A stretch of DNA of 23,904 nt. It comes from an uncultured virus (IMG/VR IMGVR_UViG_3300031952_000012). Lineage: Duplodnaviria; Heunggongvirae; Uroviricota; Caudoviricetes. The DNA lies in IMG/VR virus record IMGVR_UViG_3300031952_000012; one strand, written 5' to 3'. The notes beneath the pieces are model-generated. The model saw only the letters and a program-made list of their open reading frames with translations, was not told the origin of the DNA and made no database searches. The position numbers were made by a program, and so were the translations under genes. This document shows positions 2,655-23,368 of the stretch, one piece after another (within the stretch, counting starts at the first letter, position 1; each line of letters opens with the position of its first letter).

Positions 2655-4067
2655 TTATTCGCCGTGCTGAACAACGCAAGCTCGTTTGTAACGAGCATAG
2701 TCGCCGGTGGTGACGTCCGTGCGGACGGGCCAATCGCCGATGAACTTCCAGGCGGTAGAAACCTGATCTTGCAAACGGTTCAGAGGCGCTCTGAGAATCA
2801 TCTGAATCCGCTCTGTGAAGACTTCGATTCCGTTGTTCGTAATTCTTGGCTCTGCGGTTTTGCCCGTGATGCCTGCCTCGGTGATCAGCTCATCGAGGTT
2901 GGTGTAGTACTCACGAAGCATTCCCTGCCCGACAAACAGAGCGCGGTGAACTTTGACACCCGAGGTCGCGCCGGTATTGAAGAGCTCGCCGGCGAAGGCT
3001 TCGTCGGTCGAGTAGGTCGCCGTGAGGCCGCCATCGACGGTTTCAGGAATCGGGTTTTCGGAGTTCTGGAAATACACGGTGCCGAGGAGTTGACCGATTG
3101 TGAAATCCTTATACATGTAGTAATCGGGCAAGGCGGTCAGCAAACGCTGCCATTCTGGATCCGAGAACACTTGGGCTTCAGAGGTCGGGTCGAGGTGGCA
3201 GTGATACTTCCCGTCGGGCATCGGGGGAACGTTGCTGGTTCGGAAACGCGAAATCGCGGCTCGGATATCTGAGAGGCGAAGGAGGTCGGTGCTGCCGACA
3301 TCGTCAATTTTCATGCCGCCGCCGACGCGAACCAAATAGGTTCGATCTTCGGAGACGATATACGCGCGATCGGCAACCGTGACAGCGCCGCCCGCGATTG
3401 TGATCGTGCCAGGACCGACTTCGTCACCAGCCGTAGCGGCGGAGAAGCCGACAACGGTTCGAGAGACTTCAACGCCGGCGCCAGTCGTATCCCAAATCCG
3501 AATCTTCAGCGGATTGTTTGCGCTGACCGCATCGTATCGAACGGGGCTTCCAAGCGCGAGATCGGGCCGACGTGCTTTGGTGAGTCCGTTGAGTCGCTTG
3601 ACAGAGATGGTCGTGACAGCGCCCTGCGGGCCATCGGCAACCGTGTGTCCCGATTCAGCCGCGTTGAAGAGCCGATTCCTCGGGAGGCGGTTGAGTGACT
3701 GACCGGCAGAGAGACCGAGTTGCTGGGCGTTGCGCAAAAACAAATTGGCGATCGCGACCATCGAGGTCGGCATATTCGTATCGATCGCGTCCGCATAGAG
3801 ATTCAGAGTCGAGGACCATTGCTCGCTCGTGAACGTGCTGGGGACGGGGTCGGATCCTGGAACGAGCGGCTTGGTTTTCGGCTTGATGAGCCCTGCGCCC
3901 GTGAACGTCATGCTGTCGCCGACCTGGCCTGCCCACAACTCGGCAGTCGCCTCGCCGCGGAATAACAATCGAGGGAAAAGCGCATCGTGGAAGGCACGCT
4001 CAAGGGTGTTCTCCTGAACGATTGCTCGGATTTCTGGCGATTGAACAATAATTGAAAAATCAGTCAT
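2655..4067 (-). CDS. Major capsid protein (HK97 fold, with an inserted beta-rich domain)
   Basis: 470 aa, directly after the scaffold. Capsid-like segments 'GQVGDSMTFT', 'GKYHCHLDPTSEAQVFSDPEW', 'IGQLLGTVYFQ' and 'PLNRLQDQVSTAWKF'. Confidence 0.85.
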   Translation of the reverse strand: MTDFSIIVQSPEIRAIVQENTLERAFHDALFPRLLFRGEATAELWAGQVGDSMTFTGAGLIKPKTKPLVPGSDPVPSTFTSEQWSSTLNLYADAIDTNMPTSMVAIANLFLRNAQQLGLSAGQSLNRLPRNRLFNAAESGHTVADGPQGAVTTISVKRLNGLTKARRPDLALGSPVRYDAVSANNPLKIRIWDTTGAGVEVSRTVVGFSAATAGDEVGPGTITIAGGAVTVADRAYIVSEDRTYLVRVGGGMKIDDVGSTDLLRLSDIRAAISRFRTSNVPPMPDGKYHCHLDPTSEAQVFSDPEWQRLLTALPDYYMYKDFTIGQLLGTVYFQNSENPIPETVDGGLTATYSTDEAFAGELFNTGATSGVKVHRALFVGQGMLREYYTNLDELITEAGITGKTAEPRITNNGIEVFTERIQMILRAPLNRLQDQVSTAWKFIGDWPVRTDVTTGDYARYKRACVVQHGE

Positions 4068-11399: not shown

Positions 11400-11861
11400 T
11401 TACGACTGGTGCACTACTCTCTCCCCGTACACATGACCGATATAATCCCACGCCACCGAGAATGGACCAACCCCAAATCGAATCGCTCTGTCATCGATGA
11501 AGAGGTCGACGCTCGGCTTCCCGCCCGCGCCATCATCGATTGCGTCAAACACTCCTGGTAAATATCTCGAGATGAAGTCGAGCATTTGTTTCGCGCGCGC
11601 TTGATGAATCGGCAGACTGCTATCGCGCCACCACTCGAGGTTGACTTTCTTTTTGCCGACCTTGACGAGCGGGTCGAGCGAAGGGTCGACGAGCAACGCG
11701 CTGCTCAACCGACCCGACCATAAAATCAAAAGATGCCCCGCCGCTTTGAGCTCAAGCAACGCCTCTCGCGCGCCGGGATTGAATTGCAACGGCGACTCGA
11801 GATCGTCGTACGCGCGATCCTGATTGACGATGACGCCATCGAAGTCGACCGCAATGATCAT
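11400..11861 (-). CDS. HAD-superfamily phosphatase
   Basis: Motif I IIAVDFDGVI, motif II LWSGR, motifs III/IV GKPSVDLFIDDRA. Start ATG 11861 (TGATG overlap). Confidence 0.85.
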   Translation of the reverse strand: MIIAVDFDGVIVNQDRAYDDLESPLQFNPGAREALLELKAAGHLLILWSGRLSSALLVDPSLDPLVKVGKKKVNLEWWRDSSLPIHQARAKQMLDFISRYLPGVFDAIDDGAGGKPSVDLFIDDRAIRFGVGPFSVAWDYIGHVYGERVVHQS

Positions 11862-12217
11862 CACATCTCCTGAGGAACGCACGCGTGAACGACCGCGATG
11901 AATAGCGCATCTTTTCTCCGGTCGTTCTCAGTCAACATCGAGTACGGGAGAATCGACGGATGCTCTTTCTTTGCGGCGTTGCTGACGATGCCGTATTTCC
12001 AACCGTCCTTTTCTTTTCGATGCAGCCAATTCTCATGCGCGCGCTCGGCAAGGGAAACACCGGGATTCTCGAGCAGGAAGATGACGCCTTCGATTGTCGC
12101 TTGTCTCATCCAATCGGGCGCGTCCTCCCATCTCGGCGACGTTGTCTCGCCGATCACCTCTCGATAGGCGCGGTTCGTCTCATGACAGATCTTTGCGATA
12201 TGCTCGACGTTCATCAT
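11861..12217 (-). CDS. RyR-domain protein
   Basis: AHENWLHRKEKDGWKYG....AKKEHPSILPYSMLTENDRRKD matches the RyR repeat signature. Confidence 0.85.
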   Translation of the reverse strand: MMNVEHIAKICHETNRAYREVIGETTSPRWEDAPDWMRQATIEGVIFLLENPGVSLAERAHENWLHRKEKDGWKYGIVSNAAKKEHPSILPYSMLTENDRRKDALFIAVVHACVPQEM

Positions 12218-14157
12218 GACATGTCTCCCGGCGGCGGCTCTTGTAGCTCTGAAGGTCGAATATCAATCGCGTTAATGATCTCACTGGCGGTGCTTTCTGA
12301 GAACGACATTGGAAACGCCCCGGTAATAACGGAGACAGCGGCTTCTCTCGAGAGCAGACCTGATTGAACGGACATGAGGATCTGCAAGAGACTGGCGATC
12401 TGCGCGCCGTTGAGAGCGGTCGATTGAATGTCCTTCTCGATCTCCGCTTCGTGCGTCTCTGGTTTTTGCGTTGACAATTCCTGGTTTCTAATGCTAGGCA
12501 TTCTGCCTAGCATCATGTTCTCGAGTTCGGCGTCTTTCTCGAACCGCTCCGACTTCAACTTCTTCAACATTCCCTGCGCATCTTCGATATGGAAATACTC
12601 GGCGACGAATTTCGTCGCGTGCTCATCGTCGATAAGCCCACTCATTTTTGCATTGCCCGCTGCGCTCGTCGCCGCTGTGACGTCTGTGAGAGTCGGGTCG
12701 AAGTACTGTGGCCATTGCAATTTGAGAGAGTAATTCGGACCGGCACCGAGCACGCGCGGCTTCTGAATCGAGACACCGTTCTCGTTTTTCGTGACGCTTG
12801 GCGGGAGATTGATGGTCTGTTTTAGGACCGACCCGTCCTCTTGCACGCTCCCCGCGCCGAGTTTCTGAATCGCCTTAATCATGTCGAGGATGAGAGGCTT
12901 CACGCCACGTTCTCCGTACTGCTCACGCATGACGTCGGCCTTGGCGAGCATGCTCGAGAACGCTCTCTCGATCTCTGTCGCCGTACGCTGTGACTGCTCG
13001 GGGTGCTCTAGCACGCACTGTGCGACCTCGAGAGCGTGCTTGCGAAGCATTTCGATCTTGCTCATTGCGATCTCGATGCCCTGCCCTGTGATCTCGAGGT
13101 ACTTCGCATCGCCGTTCGGAATGTGAAGCGCGTTATCGCTTCCCTTGATGATCTCGTCCATGCGAGCGACCGAGGTAATCACGAGGGTAGGATCGCAATT
13201 CGCCTGCGTGCCTTTTAATCCGCTCGACATGAGCGCATCGATTGCCTCGATGAGCGGATAGATGCCCTGACAATCGGGGTCGCCATCGATATCGTCTTGC
13301 ACCGGGAGGTTTTGCACCCATCGCACCGGGCAGAAACCGAAACCGTGAACGACTTCCTTTCGCGCGAGGTTCTCCCAATCGGGCTCTTCGCCATCGTCGA
13401 CGGGAACAGGATCCCAGAGCACGTCCGATGTTTTCGTGATGACGCGCCGATACCAGAAATCAATTGGCTGCCTGATTCCCGTTCTCGGGTCGAGAATCTC
13501 TTTCGTGAACATGTGTCGCTTCTCGATCGATTTGAGCACGAGCTCGAGCTCGTCTTCAAAGTCCGGGATCATCCAACGCGGGTCGTGAATCTCGATTCGA
13601 GGAAGCCCATCGATAAATTGAAACCCGATGACGACCGTCCCCATCGCGCCCCCGTACTCGCGGGCGAGCATCATGAGCGGCCAAAGGCGCGCCTCTTCGA
13701 CCAATGCGCCGACGAAATCTTCGGTGAGCGGATCGCCCTCGATACGAATTTGAGGGTGATGACGCTCTGAGAAAAGCAATCCCGAGAATCTATCGACGAT
13801 GACTTTTGGGAGAGCATAGGGCGCGGTTGGCTTTCTGAACTTGTTCGGCATCGCGCTTGTCAACATCGATTGAAAGCCGGGCGGGAGAAATCCTTTTGTC
13901 GCTATCGCCTCGATCTCGATCGGGTCGATGACCTCGTTGCCGTTCCAGTCGCATTTCCTCGTATCGTAATGCTGGCATCGATACCAGGCCCACAACCAAT
14001 TCAATTCTTGCTGACGCGGCGTCAGACCGAGTCTTGCGATGCGTTGATTGGTGACTGCCTGCGCGGCGCGATCGCCGAGTCGCCCGCCGAGTTTTTGCGC
14101 GATCGCTCCCACTAGTCTGCTCACTCGGCCCATATCGACGCGGGTTGCGCTGCTCAT
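12214..14157 (-). CDS. Portal protein (probably SPP1 gp6-like) with C-terminal extension
   Basis: 647 aa after the terminase. Segments 'LPKVIVDRFSGLLF', 'VVHGFGFCPVRWVQN' and 'LKLQWPQYFDPT'. Confidence 0.85.
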   Translation of the reverse strand: MSSATRVDMGRVSRLVGAIAQKLGGRLGDRAAQAVTNQRIARLGLTPRQQELNWLWAWYRCQHYDTRKCDWNGNEVIDPIEIEAIATKGFLPPGFQSMLTSAMPNKFRKPTAPYALPKVIVDRFSGLLFSERHHPQIRIEGDPLTEDFVGALVEEARLWPLMMLAREYGGAMGTVVIGFQFIDGLPRIEIHDPRWMIPDFEDELELVLKSIEKRHMFTKEILDPRTGIRQPIDFWYRRVITKTSDVLWDPVPVDDGEEPDWENLARKEVVHGFGFCPVRWVQNLPVQDDIDGDPDCQGIYPLIEAIDALMSSGLKGTQANCDPTLVITSVARMDEIIKGSDNALHIPNGDAKYLEITGQGIEIAMSKIEMLRKHALEVAQCVLEHPEQSQRTATEIERAFSSMLAKADVMREQYGERGVKPLILDMIKAIQKLGAGSVQEDGSVLKQTINLPPSVTKNENGVSIQKPRVLGAGPNYSLKLQWPQYFDPTLTDVTAATSAAGNAKMSGLIDDEHATKFVAEYFHIEDAQGMLKKLKSERFEKDAELENMMLGRMPSIRNQELSTQKPETHEAEIEKDIQSTALNGAQIASLLQILMSVQSGLLSREAAVSVITGAFPMSFSESTASEIINAIDIRPSELQEPPPGDMS

Positions 14158-14738
14158 GTCGGTTGCCTTTCTGTGGGCACTCGATACCGCAGGCCCTTGA
14201 TTTTCAATTTCGCGAGTTTGACTCGAATGAGATCGCGTTTGAGTTGCGATTCGTAGTCGGTGAGCACGGTGCCTGAGAGATGATCCATTTCGTGCTGGAT
14301 CGAGATCGCCAACGCCCCATCGCCCCCGATCTCAATTGCGTGACCGTCTAGACCAACGCCGGATAACGCTACAACGCTCGCCCTTTTGATTTTTACGACA
14401 TGATTGGGGAAAGATAAGCACCGCTCCTCTGAAATCAACTGAGCCCCGTTTAGGAGCTTGAGCGAGGGATTGACGATCGGGATGATTTCCTCGATGTCTG
14501 CCTTGCCTTCTGGTTGGCTGTGCTTGACTCGGATAGCGATGACGTTCACGAGCTCTCCGAATTGCGGCGCCGACAATCCCGAGCCGCCGAAACAAGCGAG
14601 CGTCTCGACGAGATCAGTCATGAGCGTTCGCAACCAGCAAACGTTTCCTTTGCGCAATAGGTCGAGGTGAATCTCGTCGACGGGCTCGCACCTCGACTCG
14701 AGTTTAGTCGTCGGCCAAATGAGCACGGGTCGAATCAC
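14154..14738 (-). CDS. def: Peptide deformylase-like protein
   Basis: All three PDF motifs are present: GSGLSAPQ, ERCLS (canonical EGCLS) and QHEMDHL, plus a basic C-terminal helix. Confidence 0.85.
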   Translation of the reverse strand: MIRPVLIWPTTKLESRCEPVDEIHLDLLRKGNVCWLRTLMTDLVETLACFGGSGLSAPQFGELVNVIAIRVKHSQPEGKADIEEIIPIVNPSLKLLNGAQLISEERCLSFPNHVVKIKRASVVALSGVGLDGHAIEIGGDGALAISIQHEMDHLSGTVLTDYESQLKRDLIRVKLAKLKIKGLRYRVPTERQPT

Positions 14739-15167: not shown

Positions 15168-16664
15168 TCATCGCGACATCAAATCGATATAGCCTGATTT
15201 TACCTTCACGTCACCAATGCGAACGCCCTCGCGTGCGAACCACATCGCCATCAGACAATCGCCAGTATGAGCGTTCACGTCGTAATTGCATATTTCGTTT
15301 ACAAGCGGTTCGAGCGAGGCGTGCACTCGGCCGTTGCTACTGGGTATCGACCACTTGCCCATTGCCATTTCGGTCGAGAGAGACTCGACACCAAAATCGG
15401 GATGAACTTTATTGTTACCCGTGGTGAAAGGGATGATTGGAATAACTCCCAATTGAGCCTGACCGAATTGTCCCATCTCGTGGGCGAATTGCACAATGTA
15501 ATCTTGCGCCGCGTTGTTCTCGACGACACAGATTGATTGATAGCGCCGCTGAATGTCGAACAAGCGTTTGAGAATATCAATGCCCTTCCACTTCCCTCTC
15601 TCGACGTTGATGATTTCCCGGCACCCGTTTTGATAAACGAGAATCGTCACCATCGCGGTGAAGTCGTTCGCATCGCCTCTCTTGACGGCGAGGTCGACGC
15701 CCGTATAGACGCGGCATCCGTACGGGATGATGTCGAGCTGGAACGTGAGCGCTCTGCCCTCGCCATTCTTGAGCGCGATATCGAGCCACTCCTTTTTGAA
15801 CCTCGCCTCGGAATCGTCGCGCGCTATGCAGTCGAGTTTTCGCGGCGCTTGAATCGGGCCGAGCTCTTGACGCTTGAGTGCGATGCGCTCCTCGGACCAT
15901 TGGTCGGGCCACCGAGGTTTCCCATTCTCGTCTGTGATTGGATATCGAAATGCTTTCCATGCCGGCGTCTTTGCCAGGCGGTGCATGAAATCATCGGGAT
16001 GCCAGGCGGTGCCGACACAAATCACTCGCGCATTTTCTGTGAGGCGGTCGACGAGCGTTGACTCGTACCAATCCCAAAGGTCATCGCGCGCGCGTTTCGT
16101 TCTCGTGTTCTCGAAGTCGAGTAGGTCGTCGAGAATGAGGAGATCGATTCTCGCGCCCGTGATGTTTCCGTGAATGCCGCACGCGAAGACCGTCGGATCC
16201 TTTGAAAATACTTTGCGCTTCACCTGCATTTCAGTGTTGTTCCACGGCTCGTCGGGCAAGAGATCGGGAAAGATCTCGTGAAGCGTTTCCGATTTCTCGA
16301 TGTACTGCTGGATCGCATAACCGATTTTCACTGCCTGCGCCGAGGTGTTGCTAACGATTGCTACTCGCAACGCGGGATCGCTACCGATGGCAAAGAGAGT
16401 TCGCCCTATCGAGAGTTGGTTTGTCTTGCCGCTCTCGACGTGACTCCAGATAAGCAATCGATTGTGGCGATTGGCGAGCGAGTGCCAATGATTCTGCGGG
16501 ATGCTCTGTTGGATACGCTGACCCGTGCGCTCGTTGCGCAACACGGCCTGATTGAAGACGGCCGGAACCGTTCGGGCGAGCTCTAACTCTACTTGTCTTG
16601 CCGCCCGCGTCGCTCCCTTGAATAGGTCCGACCGCGAGTTAGTGAACTGGGTTGCCGGCGCCAT
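15168..16664 (-). CDS. terL: Terminase large subunit
   Basis: Walker A SHVESGKT, Walker B LLILDD, coupling motif VGTAWH, and RNase-H-like nuclease residues TGVDLA, NDFTA, VENN and GDCLMA. The likely start is ATG 16664; the ORF track uses GTG 16715. Confidence 0.92.
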   Translation of the reverse strand: MAPATQFTNSRSDLFKGATRAARQVELELARTVPAVFNQAVLRNERTGQRIQQSIPQNHWHSLANRHNRLLIWSHVESGKTNQLSIGRTLFAIGSDPALRVAIVSNTSAQAVKIGYAIQQYIEKSETLHEIFPDLLPDEPWNNTEMQVKRKVFSKDPTVFACGIHGNITGARIDLLILDDLLDFENTRTKRARDDLWDWYESTLVDRLTENARVICVGTAWHPDDFMHRLAKTPAWKAFRYPITDENGKPRWPDQWSEERIALKRQELGPIQAPRKLDCIARDDSEARFKKEWLDIALKNGEGRALTFQLDIIPYGCRVYTGVDLAVKRGDANDFTAMVTILVYQNGCREIINVERGKWKGIDILKRLFDIQRRYQSICVVENNAAQDYIVQFAHEMGQFGQAQLGVIPIIPFTTGNNKVHPDFGVESLSTEMAMGKWSIPSSNGRVHASLEPLVNEICNYDVNAHTGDCLMAMWFAREGVRIGDVKVKSGYIDLMSR

Positions 16665-17394
16665 TGCGGCCCCCCGTTGATTCGATGATGACCGCGTCCG
16701 CACTTGATTCGGCATTCACCTCTGAACTTGACTCGGTGAGCGCGGGATTCCAAACGGCGTCGGCGCCCATGCTTTTCGCCATCTCGATCGTGGCGAGCGC
16801 GCGTCGACATTCTGACTCTGCTTCCTCGACGGTGATATTCGTCAGCCCAATGATCTCGGTCGGCGCTCCGACGAGTAGGCGCTCTAACACGAGCGAGAGT
16901 TTGGCGCTCTCGTTGCCGTCCTTGATGAGCTTGCCGATTGTCGCAACGACTGCGAGGCCATCCTTAACGCCTAGCTGCTCTGTCTTGAGTTGCTCGCCGA
17001 GCTTCGCCGCGAGTTGAAAGGCGCCGCCTAGAAGCTTTTGAGAGCAGGCCATGAGCGCGATGCAATTCTCTCTCGCTCCTCGGACCATCTTCGTCTCGTG
17101 GGTGCGGATCTCTATCGCGTCTTGTCGAACGACCTCTGATTTGATGCTCACTGTCTCGAGGTTGCGCTTTGCCTTCTCTGACGCCACTCTTGATCTCGCC
17201 TCGAGTTGCTCTTGCTCGACGACATCTTTCGCGGGATCGAAGTACTTTGATTCCCAGCCGACCTTCCAGCATTTTGTGGCGGTTCGATACTCAACATTGC
17301 ATTTTTGCGCCACGTAACTAATATTGCCGGGCTCTTCTCGAAACGCCTCTAGCATCTGCTCGTAGAGTTCACGACTGATTGCTTTTCTGCTCAC
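16639..17394 (-). CDS. terS: Terminase small subunit (putative)
   Basis: N-terminal HTH-like segment (NISYVAQKCNVEYRTATKCW) and a helical middle. Overlaps the terL start; RBS GGGGGA. Confidence 0.7.
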   Translation of the reverse strand: MSRKAISRELYEQMLEAFREEPGNISYVAQKCNVEYRTATKCWKVGWESKYFDPAKDVVEQEQLEARSRVASEKAKRNLETVSIKSEVVRQDAIEIRTHETKMVRGARENCIALMACSQKLLGGAFQLAAKLGEQLKTEQLGVKDGLAVVATIGKLIKDGNESAKLSLVLERLLVGAPTEIIGLTNITVEEAESECRRALATIEMAKSMGADAVWNPALTESSSEVNAESSADAVIIESTGGRNGAGNPVH

Positions 17395-20991: not shown

Positions 20992-21363
20992 TCACCCCTC
21001 TCTTATTCTCTTGCCGTCGGCACTGAATAGATAACGCTCACTGTCAACGTTGACGACGGTGTTCAAGCGCTTGGCGATGCCCATCCCATGATTCTTTTCC
21101 AGCCCGAGACTGACCGCCGCGTCGAGGTGCTCGTGAATCTCCTTTTCTATCTCCTGCAATAATCTCTGAAACCCACCCTTTTTGATCGCGTCGATGAACT
21201 CCAACTTTTCCGTCGCCGCTCTCAACTCCGAGATGACCAACGTCGCACGCGCCGCGCGATACTTTTGATCATCTGTGAAACCCTCGAATGCCTCCTTGAA
21301 CAGCGGGCAATTATTCGATGCAGCCTTCACCATTTCGGTTGTATATTTCACTGTGTGTGCCAT
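20992..21363 (-). CDS. Hypothetical protein
   Basis: RBS AGGGAG; 123 aa. Confidence 0.7.
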   Translation of the reverse strand: MAHTVKYTTEMVKAASNNCPLFKEAFEGFTDDQKYRAARATLVISELRAATEKLEFIDAIKKGGFQRLLQEIEKEIHEHLDAAVSLGLEKNHGMGIAKRLNTVVNVDSERYLFSADGKRIREG

Positions 21364-21381
21364 GTGTTTTTCTCCCTATTT
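21361..21381. repeat. 21-bp perfect direct repeat over TAG-RBS-ATG (second copy 21571-21591)
   Basis: catgtgtttttctccctattt occurs twice, 210 bp apart, bracketing one gene. Confidence 0.95.
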
Positions 21382-21573
21382 CATATCAGAATTAGCAAGC
21401 CTTATCGCTATTGCGCAAGCACAAAATCCAGGGTTATCCTTATCTAATTGGAATTCGACTTTTGTACCATATGGAAACGTCACATCGGGATCTGCAACAA
21501 CATAATATCTGTCTGCAGTCTTAATCATATTGTACGTTTTCAATTTCGTGTGATTCAAAAAATATCCAAGCAT
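21376..21573 (-). CDS. Small AT-rich hypothetical protein flanked by 21-bp direct repeats
   Basis: RBS AGGGAG; 65 aa. Confidence 0.6.
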   Translation of the reverse strand: MLGYFLNHTKLKTYNMIKTADRYYVVADPDVTFPYGTKVEFQLDKDNPGFCACAIAIRLANSDMK

Positions 21574-21884: not shown

Positions 21885-22198
21885 GGTTCTCCCTTTACCT
21901 TCATCGTCGACTTGTACGCCCTCTTCCTTCTCAGCAAATGCCCACGCACGGCTTCCTTTTCCGTCGCGTAGCGCACGCATTCGCCATCATCCGGTCCGCC
22001 AAAAACCATCGTCTCAAAAATAAGTGGCGCACCTTTGTCATTCTGACCGTGACTACTTCCAAGCCAAACGGTCGACACACGAATCTTGCCGCCCGTCAAA
22101 CCAATTACACGGTAAGTGTTATCGTTCAACAACTCGATCCACTTCTCAAAACTGATTGACTCTCCATGTTTGTCGCGCCAGTCGATTTCGGTTTTCAT
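21881..22198 (-). CDS. Phage hypothetical protein (VSTVWLG...FETMVFGG...RY.T..EA..GH type)
   Basis: ATG 22198 (ATGA overlap, RBS AAGGAG); 105 aa. Confidence 0.7.
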   Translation of the reverse strand: MKTEIDWRDKHGESISFEKWIELLNDNTYRVIGLTGGKIRVSTVWLGSSHGQNDKGAPLIFETMVFGGPDDGECVRYATEKEAVRGHLLRRKRAYKSTMKVKGEP

Positions 22199-22467
22199 CG
22201 TCCGCACTCCTTCAGGCACTTGTAAAAATAACAGGACGCTTCGGCGTTCTTGATCCCGATGAGGCGCCTCTCAACATCGGGCGCTTCGCCGGCGTCCTCT
22301 ATCCAAACATTTCCGTTCGCCGCCTTCGCCACCTGCTCGTCTTGCTCTATGACGAGACCTCCATCGCTCGAGATCTTGCACTCAAAACAGAGCGCGTCCT
22401 CGCGGCATATGACCGCCTCGATTCCACAGCCCGTGAATATGAGCATCGCCAACGCTAGGCTTTTCAT
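22195..22467 (-). CDS. Putative lipoprotein
   Basis: MKSLALAMLIFTGC: basic residue, hydrophobic core and lipobox-like Cys14. Six further Cys residues. Confidence 0.6.
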   Translation of the reverse strand: MKSLALAMLIFTGCGIEAVICREDALCFECKISSDGGLVIEQDEQVAKAANGNVWIEDAGEAPDVERRLIGIKNAEASCYFYKCLKECGR

Positions 22468-22478
22468 GATTGCTACCC

Positions 22479-22622
22479 CCGAATTGCGTAGTTTTACCTC
22501 TAACTATTTTAACAGCAACCTGCCGATTTCTAACGATTTTTGTAGGAACCTAAACATTTCAATTGCGTCGCAGCTTGCGTACGATTGCGTTGTTACGTAT
22601 TCTTGAGTCCTCCGAATTGCGT
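22479..22622. promoter_or_regulatory. Cluster of TTGCGT/ACGCAA repeats (putative operator or promoter region)
   Basis: TTGCGT at 22484, 22563, 22575, 22585 and 22617. The outer two extend to an 11-bp direct repeat CCGAATTGCGT (22479-22489 and 22612-22622). Confidence 0.45.
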
Positions 22623-22658
22623 GCCGCTCGATCTTTTCTGAGGAGGTCGGGCGGCATT

Positions 22659-22747
22659 TTCTTTTGCCCCGCGCGTGCGGGGAATGCTGAGATAAGTCAA
22701 CAGACAGATCAATGGGCACGGTTCAGCCCCGCGTGTGCGGGGAAACA
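22659..22747 (-). CRISPR. Cas-less type I-E-like CRISPR mini-array (full repeat, 31/32-nt spacer, 3'-degenerate repeat)
   Basis: Minus strand: TGTTTCCCCGCACACGCGGGGCTGAACCG (22747-22719), spacer TGCCCATTGATCTGTCTGTTGACTTATCTCA, then GCATTCCCCGCACGCGCGGGGCAAAAGAA (22687-22659). The architecture matches the E. coli I-E repeat GTGTTCCCCGCGCCAGCGGGGATAAACCG. Period is 60 nt. Confidence 0.85.
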
Positions 22748-23368
22748 TCATCGACATGACTCGATGTCTTTCAAAACCATTCCGTCTCTCACCATCATCG
22801 TGGGAGCCCATCCATGCTCGACGAAATTCAACGCCGCCTCTCTCGAGTAACCTTGCGTGACGAGATAGTCGACAAACGTTTCCTTCGTCGGAAATACCGG
22901 CGAGATGGGCGAGCCTTCGCTTACCGTTTCCCAGAGCTGATACCCCTCACCCTCGGGCGGTAACTCTTCCTCCCACGCTTCGTACTTTGCTTTGACCGCG
23001 GCATCGATGCCTGTACTATCACAGATAGTGCACCTTCCCCAACCGGGGAGACCTGCTATCTCGAGGAGTTTTTGTTTGAGACTGAACGTCTGTCCCCATT
23101 CTAGAAGCACCACTCCTTTGGGCTCGCCCGATAACGCGACGAATAACTCATGGAGTTCTTTTGCGCGTGCGTTTCTATTGGCATCCGTGGGGTTGGTCGC
23201 CGATATCTGAAACTCTTCCAACCATTTATTGAACCAGCGGTCACCCGCCGTTGCGCCTGTGCCGCCACAATGCGCGCATTGCTTCCAGTACGGATTCAGA
23301 AAACCTTGCCACACCTTGCGCAAAGGCCAATTGAAATCAAGAGGCACCCGATAGATTTCTCTTCCCAT
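22748..23368 (-). CDS. Hypothetical protein with DnaJ-type CxxCxGxG Zn-binding repeats
   Basis: CAHCGGTG and CTICDSTG; C-terminal PPEGEGYQLWETVSEGSPISPVF; RBS GGGAG. Confidence 0.7.
   Translation of the reverse strand: MGREIYRVPLDFNWPLRKVWQGFLNPYWKQCAHCGGTGATAGDRWFNKWLEEFQISATNPTDANRNARAKELHELFVALSGEPKGVVLLEWGQTFSLKQKLLEIAGLPGWGRCTICDSTGIDAAVKAKYEAWEEELPPEGEGYQLWETVSEGSPISPVFPTKETFVDYLVTQGYSREAALNFVEHGWAPTMMVRDGMVLKDIESCR

Follow-up and report, generated by a model that had tools for sequence, protein, structure and literature searches.

A type I-E CRISPR mini-array without cas genes and with an exchangeable spacer in tailed phage DNA

The use of clusters of regularly interspaced, short palindromic repeats (CRISPRs) by viruses is a published concept, and viral mini-arrays, RNA anti-CRISPRs (Racrs) and viral Cracr RNAs have all been described. 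The virus-borne mini-arrays reported for SPV1 and SPV2 from Sulfolobales combine one or two spacers with repeats of the host's type and lack cas genes (Medvedeva et al. 2019, PMC6858448; PMC11656645). Repeats of viral mini-arrays are identical to those of the host, and their targets are mostly related viruses (PMC11656645). Racrs are phage-encoded mimics of CRISPR repeats, also without cas genes (Camara-Wilpert et al. 2023, PMC10651486). They are solitary repeat units that often closely follow a promoter and have acr genes as neighbours, and I-E examples inhibit a I-E system (PMC10651486). A Racr lacks a functional spacer and acts on its cognate CRISPR-Cas system through binding of Cas6 and Cas7. 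Viral Cracr (crlRNA) elements include I-E-type mini-arrays with degenerate repeats in phages or prophages; these copies of host units reprogram host Cascade, repress P_casA, including that of I-E systems, and carry different spacers with different host strains (Liu et al., bioRxiv 10.1101/2024.10.29.618823). Here we describe a genuine cas-less type I-E CRISPR mini-array in a 23,904-nucleotide (nt) stretch of DNA from an uncultured virus of the Caudoviricetes (IMG/VR record IMGVR_UViG_3300031952_000012). The whole of this stretch is called the window.

The phage unit has the composition of a viral mini-array, with one spacer, host-type repeats, no cas genes, and phage structural and packaging genes in the same DNA. 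As in the virus-borne mini-arrays, the spacers differ among close viruses and the unit would have to rely on host Cas proteins. Unlike SPV1 and SPV2, the virus is a bacterial tailed phage, the repeat is of type I-E and there is no leader-like junction. A further difference is that no spacer match to a related virus or other mobile element was found in the collections searched, in which the related records are 13–44% complete. The unit resembles Racrs as a phage-encoded repeat mimic without cas genes. It differs from them in having two repeats and a hypervariable spacer of canonical length, and neither a conserved promoter nor an acr gene was recognised; the SRUFinder rule (PMC10651486) would set it aside as a mini-array. 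What is new is a clean bacterial I-E example of the viral mini-array class.

The unit extends on the minus strand from 22747 to 22659 and consists of a full I-E repeat (R1), one spacer and a second repeat (R2) that has the hairpin and lacks the 3' tail (Table 1). R1 has the makeup of a I-E repeat, with 29 nt, the stem CCCCGC-N4-GCGGGG (here CCCCGC-ACAC-GCGGGG) and a complete 8-nt tail, CTGAACCG, the predicted 5' handle of the CRISPR RNA (crRNA). It lies directly 3' of the TGA (22750-22748) that closes the upstream gene. In R2 the last 7 nt are AAAAGAA in place of TGAACCG, and the hairpin and one base 3' of it are retained. An earlier note on this DNA had described the same order of repeat, spacer and tailless repeat with a spacer of 31–32 nt; the order stands, the spacer is 31 nt, and the unit is on the minus strand. 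A repeat search of the window recovered the 19-nt cores of R1 and R2 at 95% identity and 60 nt apart. The window contains two copies of the hairpin pattern CCCCGCNNNNGCGGGG, where shuffles lead one to expect 0.02, and its minimum-free-energy fold includes both hairpins (z = -3.9). Cleavage by Cas6e falls at the 3' base of the repeat hairpin. Following this rule, the predicted crRNA runs from CUGAACCG through the 31-nt spacer into a 3' handle of 21 nt that stops at the base of the R2 hairpin. The cleavage context GGGG/C is identical in R1 and R2. The two parts that a Cas6e-made crRNA would contain, namely the 8-nt R1 tail and the R2 hairpin, are intact, as the note had pointed out. Rfam gave no family at gathering score; the best was CRISPR-DR28 at R2, with 16.6 bits against a gathering score of 35.

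The repeat is closely matched in bacteria. One genome per prokaryote species was scanned with the stem plus the tail CTGAACCG, any loop being allowed, and at least 126 loci were obtained. The 26-mer TTCCCCGCACACGCGGGGCTGAACCG, which covers 26 of the 29 nt of R1, is identical in at least 45 loci among the 126 listed, and the mismatches of R1 to bacterial I-E repeats are confined to the first 3 nt. At least 28 of these 45 loci hold three or more copies, some up to 131–132 repeats at 61-nt spacing. The earlier note had staked its reading on bacterial I-E arrays with a near-identical repeat, and these are such arrays. Among the matches listed, 31 of the 26-mer loci are titled, and 19 of the 31 are Hyphomicrobium, Hyphomicrobiaceae or Hyphomicrobiales; Acidobacteria and others are also present. 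Arrays of the R1 type adjoin cse1 and cas3-sized genes in two searched genomes, G002 and G004. The repeat search thus points to a host, as the note had anticipated: judged from the repeat alone, the phage probably infects a member of the Hyphomicrobiaceae. In three other sediment sequencing runs, X3, X5 and X8, the repeat has 3–10 times the depth of its flanks (31-mer unitigs), which fits co-occurring arrays with the same repeat type. The listed arrays contain 1933 repeat-to-repeat units with periods of mainly 61 nt (1743 units), 62 nt (112) and 60 nt (28). The phage period is 60 nt in the window and 61 nt with the other two spacers described below, in line with the period of about 61 nt for type I-E. 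A 60-nt period is uncommon but natural, and gives no ground for the regulatory or decoy role that the note had read from it.

Related records were found by scans with R1, with R2 plus the trailer, and with the spacer. They are G001, G403, G404 and G405 of IMG/VR (loci L130-L133 and L140-L143) and the metagenome contig L144, and together with the window they make up a six-record alignment, A1. G001 is the nearest record, with 99% identity in the surroundings of the array, and flank identity among the related records is 97–99.8%. R1, the R2 hairpin and the degenerate R2 tail are invariant in all six records, and about 300 nt downstream of the array are identical except for two bases. The R2-tail sequence GGGGCAAAAGAAAA and trailer words have no match in the non-family loci examined, and in IMG/VR they occur only in four family records. 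Every record has exactly one spacer and one complete unit. The spacer itself exists as three unrelated alleles: a 31-mer in the window, G001 and L144, a 32-mer in G403 and G404, and another 32-mer in G405. All three have canonical lengths. The first 4 nt of R2 co-vary with the allele (GCAT, GTAT and ATGT), and these positions also vary among host array types. The variability that the note had suggested looking for in related phages is therefore found. The exchange is visible in the sequencing runs too, where contigs of X3, X5 and X8 match the window between 22300 and 22747 apart from 14 substitutions and 3 indels; none of these lies outside 22686-22717, and they correspond to the G403 allele. 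G403 has the upstream gene of the window with another spacer, and the window, G001 and L144 share a spacer in three different upstream contexts, so spacer and upstream flank assort independently. The most valuable feature of the locus is this population-level swap of a spacer cassette, which takes place inside a single population of a sediment phage and in an array with one slot and no leader. The lack of a leader means that ordinary adaptation probably does not account for the exchange. The 1-nt difference in length and the full replacement of sequence rule out a conserved overlapping reading frame, the outcome that the note had named as fatal to its reading; the relatives keep the hairpins, the tail and spacers of 31 or 32 nt. 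The -35-like TTGACT at spacer positions 19–24, taken in the note as a regulatory or decoy hint, is absent from both other alleles and loses that meaning.

All plausible genes of the window are on the minus strand. Large terminase, portal, major head and tail-completion proteins were identified with PHROGs, so the window is part of a tailed phage. No Cas family was found by PADLOC in the window's 34 open reading frames (ORFs) and another 18 from the 39.5-kilobase (kb) relative G001, by PHROGs in the 34 window ORFs, or by Pfam in 12 window and 18 G001 ORFs. Together with the identity of the repeat, the absence of Cas families in 52 ORFs upholds the claim of a cas-less I-E mini-array in a phage. 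With neither adjoining cas genes nor a conserved leader junction, it is not a complete CRISPR-Cas locus. The extra 17 kb of G001 encode a family A DNA polymerase, gp32-like, RecA-like and SbcCD-like proteins and a DNA methylase, and no integrase was seen in the 39.5 kb of this record, which is 44% complete. Since the relatives are 13–44% complete, much of the gene pool of the family is unseen. No acr or aca gene was recognised beside the array (PHROGs, Pfam and PADLOC), and the whole window has no match among GenBank phages (megablast).

The mini-array most likely depends on host Cas proteins. Our preferred reading, with a probability of about 0.5, is that it gives a spacer-specific guide crRNA made by host Cas6e and Cascade. 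The array would be transcribed together with the surrounding minus-strand phage genes, and host Cas6e would cut at the 3' base of both hairpins and release one 60-nt crRNA that would join host Cascade. By analogy with known viral mini-arrays, the guide may be directed to an AAG-flanked protospacer in a rival phage or other mobile element. The spacer sequence most likely matters, since the cassette is swapped wholesale between near-identical phages, and an RNA whose spacer matters would act as a guide. Several observations weigh against this reading. A protospacer was found for none of the three alleles in the collections searched. There is no conserved promoter upstream, where the flank varies among the relatives; the only promoter-like site is weak (9/12), lies within the end of the upstream gene and is not common to the relatives. 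RNA evidence was sought among 24 sediment runs that contain the phage, and none is listed as RNA. Conservation of the repeats is indistinguishable from the general near-identity of the flanks, with no independent sign of selection on the hairpins. The host was inferred solely from the repeat, and none of the 1933 host spacers matches the phage convincingly (best ungapped 22–23 of 32, with no protospacer-adjacent motif, PAM). The bases before the first repeat are AAGT or AAGA in 35 of 55 host arrays, and ATGA (window) or ATTT (G001) in the phage; compared with these 55 arrays, the phage unit has no host-type leader-repeat junction.

The search for targets covered phages, plasmids, host genomes and cas promoters, as the earlier note had recommended, and returned none. 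The window spacer has no second copy in the window with up to 3 mismatches, in agreement with the note, and its partial and seed matches in the window and G001 are at the level of shuffles. In IMG/VR, the three alleles with every sixth position left free matched only the arrays themselves or chance sequences, and the window spacer searched as two exact halves found no target. The window allele has two matches in JGI metagenome contigs, both arrays, and none in plasmids. It was also absent, with up to 3 mismatches, from 5 and then 401 sampled genomes of the Hyphomicrobiaceae, the family of G002. Blastn of the alleles against GenBank phages gave no target and only chance matches: 16–21-nt hits at E = 3–10 for one allele, none for another, and Aeromonas and Streptococcus phages at E = 0.3 for the third. 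Compared ungapped with the window, G001, G403-G405, L144 and four host cas loci, the three alleles reach at most 20 of 32 positions, and shuffled spacers reach a median of 19–20 and a maximum of 22. There is thus no partial self-target or target in those host cas loci above chance.

Host CreR-type regulatory mini-arrays in I-E cas loci were reportedly described by Shmakov et al. 2023 (PMC10120712). In our sample, cse1 was present in 33 of the 401 Hyphomicrobiaceae genomes and 30 loci were fetched. Nine of these 30 contain a CreR-like mini-array between cas3 and cse1, right after the cas3 stop. The design is that of the phage unit, with two repeats, the tail CTGAACCG intact on the first and a degenerate tail on the second. 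The spacers are 23 or 32 nt long and diverge widely in sequence between genomes. Seven of the 8 distinct spacers have an AAG-flanked site in their own locus, with 10–12 of 12 seed positions paired, and these sites adjoin the -35-like TTGAC(T/A) box of the cse1 promoter. The host mini-arrays therefore look like CreR-type regulators as described for I-E systems, and host I-E systems with the R1 repeat type use AAG-flanked targets. The likely hosts, Hyphomicrobiaceae, would thus control their I-E systems through mini-arrays built like that of the phage. A host CreR or CreA sits within a cas locus and acts on its own promoter or toxin gene. Unlike the host units, which match the adjacent promoter, the phage unit sits in a phage genome, and no such target was found for it. 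A Cracr shares 9 or more PAM-proximal base pairs (bp) with host CreR or CreA and targets P_casA (10.1101/2024.10.29.618823); for the phage unit this was found in none of 401 genomes and none of 30 cse1 loci. The genome count refers to host units with the phage tail plus seed, sought with up to 2 mismatches and the window allele only. Across the cse1 loci, all 30 of which were scanned, PAM-plus-seed matches at 9 or more of 12 positions number 4, 7 and 9 for the three phage spacers. Shuffled spacers average 4.9 such matches and reach 11 of 12, and the same scan recovers 7 of the 8 host targets. The single phage match at 10 of 12 is flanked by ATG, not AAG. In length, too, the phage spacers (31–32 nt) differ from those of the tested Salmonella I-E Cracrs, which are 21–24 nt (10.1101/2024.10.29.618823). 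Phage spacers match neither CreR-like units nor cas8e promoters of the sampled hosts. The Cracr reading is unsupported in these hosts, but the sample may simply lack the true host.

Apart from a guide role, the unit may mainly disarm the host I-E system as an RNA anti-CRISPR, a lesser possibility that deserves attention. As a Racr-like decoy it would soak up Cas6e and Cascade subunits. As a repressor it would be a Cracr/crlRNA-type guide whose seed pairs with the promoter of cas8e or another defence gene, and the spacer alleles would follow host strain variation. The shared design with the host CreR-like mini-arrays speaks for this, and allele turnover could follow the wide variation of their spacers by strain. 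Both phage I-E Racrs (PMC10651486) and I-E Cracr arrays (10.1101/2024.10.29.618823) have been shown experimentally. The replication and recombination genes of G001, with no integrase seen, make an immediate anti-defence benefit plausible if the phage is lytic. The TTGACT of the window spacer recalls the box that host CreR-like targets adjoin, but the other two alleles are without it. The phage seed is missing from the host CreR-like units sampled, its matches in cse1 loci are at shuffle level in a scan that works for host targets, and no acr or aca gene is recognised nearby. A pure decoy would also leave the wholesale replacement at canonical length unexplained. As the true host may lie outside the sample, these results only weaken the anti-CRISPR explanation.

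A passive origin appears rather unlikely. The unit would then be a fragment captured from a host array or CreR unit, with spacers swapped during infection by homologous recombination with host arrays and no selected function for the phage. This would agree with the lack of a host-type leader junction, which makes normal Cas1-Cas2 integration unlikely, and with the first 4 nt of R2 travelling with the spacer, as expected if crossover brings in the spacer and the repeat edge as one piece. Four different contexts upstream mark the site as a mosaic junction, and neither target nor promoter was found. Yet none of the 1933 collected host spacers equals a phage spacer (BLAST), and the same class of element is functional in other viruses (PMC11656645). 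The single intact unit in all six records, with no decay or expansion, also argues against passive carriage, but carries little weight as the records are too similar. Very improbable is a non-CRISPR origin, by which chance GC-rich hairpins (a terminator or a repetitive extragenic palindrome-like element) or an overlapping coding frame would imitate an array. Overlapping ORFs do exist at 22504..22719 (-), 22593..22811 (-) and 22563..22850 (+), and a hairpin that is terminator-like on the plus strand adjoins R2. However, neither R1 nor R2 hairpin is followed by a U-run 3' on the minus strand, and replacement of the spacer with a 1-nt change in length destroys any frame. Chance could hardly give a 26-nt identity to the repeats of many I-E arrays, the 60-nt spacing, and two hairpins where 0.02 are expected. 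Whether the phage RNA is a guide, a decoy or a repressor would tell how phages exploit the CRISPR machinery of their hosts.

The manner in which the slot is filled deserves comment. Ordinary leader-dependent integration seems unlikely, because the junction is not of the host type and the flank upstream varies among the relatives. In addition, integration should leave a duplicate of R1, but in no record does R2 begin as R1 does. If instead crossover with other arrays took place within the repeats, the spacer would be expected to bring the first 4 nt of R2 along with it. The 1933 spacers of the host arrays include no phage spacer. We tentatively suggest that the phage, probably lytic, keeps a leaderless one-slot cassette of two host-type repeats that is refilled by repeat-mediated recombination with CRISPR arrays of infected cells, and that host Cascade then excludes rivals. 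Such refilling would account for the unrelated alleles, the co-varying 4 nt of R2 and the missing leader. If it is true, the phage takes ready-made immune memories of its host.

Table 1. Positions of the features of the mini-array, its neighbourhood and related loci (window coordinates unless a locus is named).
Feature	Position	Strand	Remarks
Repeat 1 (R1)	22719..22747	-	29 nt, TGTTTCCCCGCACACGCGGGGCTGAACCG
Spacer	22688..22718	-	31 nt, TGCCCATTGATCTGTCTGTTGACTTATCTCA
Repeat 2 (R2)	22659..22687	-	first 22 nt repeat-like, GCATTCCCCGCACGCGCGGGGC; hairpin complete (CCCCGC-ACGC-GCGGGG)
Predicted mature crRNA	22667..22726	-	60 nt; from sequence and the Cas6e cleavage rule
Upstream gene	22748..23368	-	206 amino acids (aa); stop codon abuts R1
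Non-coding stretch from R2 to next gene	22468..22658	-	same in all 5 aligned records that reach it
Downstream gene	22195..22467	-	90 aa; no family match (PHROGs, Pfam, PADLOC)
Large terminase	15168-16715	-	PHROGs
Portal	12214-14157	-	PHROGs
Major head protein	2655-4067	-	PHROGs
Insert of G001	L002 1848-2075 (= G001:C1 about 21207-21431)	-	
Host CreR-like units	L161 8291-8806; L163 11132-11690; also L175, L179, L181, L183, L184, L186		

The 206-aa protein encoded upstream of the array has two CxxCxGxG motifs (CAHCGGTG and CTICDSTG), as in DnaJ-type zinc fingers. It belongs to no PHROG, Pfam or PADLOC family, and the ESM Atlas gave viral hypothetical clusters only. The gene is replaced in, or separated from the array of, the relatives G001, L143 and L144. 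On the other side, the 190-nt non-coding stretch after R2 may serve the downstream operon as its operator or promoter. It contains the motif ACGCAATTCGG(A/G)GG twice (22476-22489 and 22609-22622) and the terminator-like hairpin mentioned above, at 22621-22657, with a 9-bp stem and a 15-nt loop; only on the plus strand is it terminator-like. The 90-aa protein that follows begins with MKSLALAMLIFTGC, which by eye resembles a signal peptide carrying a lipobox-like FTGC. The protein is possibly a small lipoprotein of the phage, and such lipoproteins are often tied to superinfection exclusion. Two further genes on the minus strand are located within the packaging and head module. They encode a phosphoheptose-isomerase-like protein (11400-11882, PHROG 1238, E = 2e-14) and a peptide-deformylase-like protein (14154-14738, PHROG 2890, E = 5e-16).

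In G001, a 223-bp insert with the look of a transfer RNA (tRNA) or transfer-messenger RNA separates the upstream gene from R1. Its features are an acceptor-like stem of 9 bp (GGAAGCCAG / CTGGCTTCC), with TCA directly after it, and two hairpins that resemble T-arms (GGTTCGATTCC and GGTTCGACTCC); the fold z is -2.4. ARAGORN found nothing in it, Rfam gave only tRNA-Sec at 20.7 bits (E = 0.12), and there was no real match in 5 host genomes. L143 and L144 retain the last 16–30 nt of the insert, 4–5 nt before the array. The insert might be an attachment-site fragment, or a tRNA-like element that drives or processes the crRNA precursor. Arrays with the same type of repeat or stem were observed on other IMG/VR contigs. 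The 469-kb 'viral' contig L134 carries a same-stem array in which tails alternate between CTGAACCG and unrelated sequence and the loops vary. L129 (4.1 kb) has a two-spacer mini-array of the same repeat type at about 560-800, with a direct repeat CCAATGGCTGGCAA on both sides, as if it had been inserted with duplication. L135 (47.5 kb) has a three-repeat mini-array of this type at about 1497-1700. Part of its first spacer is the reverse complement of a ribosome-binding and start region about 130 nt downstream (CGCACCACCA...GATGCGATCTAT), and this array possibly encodes a self-regulatory crRNA-like RNA.

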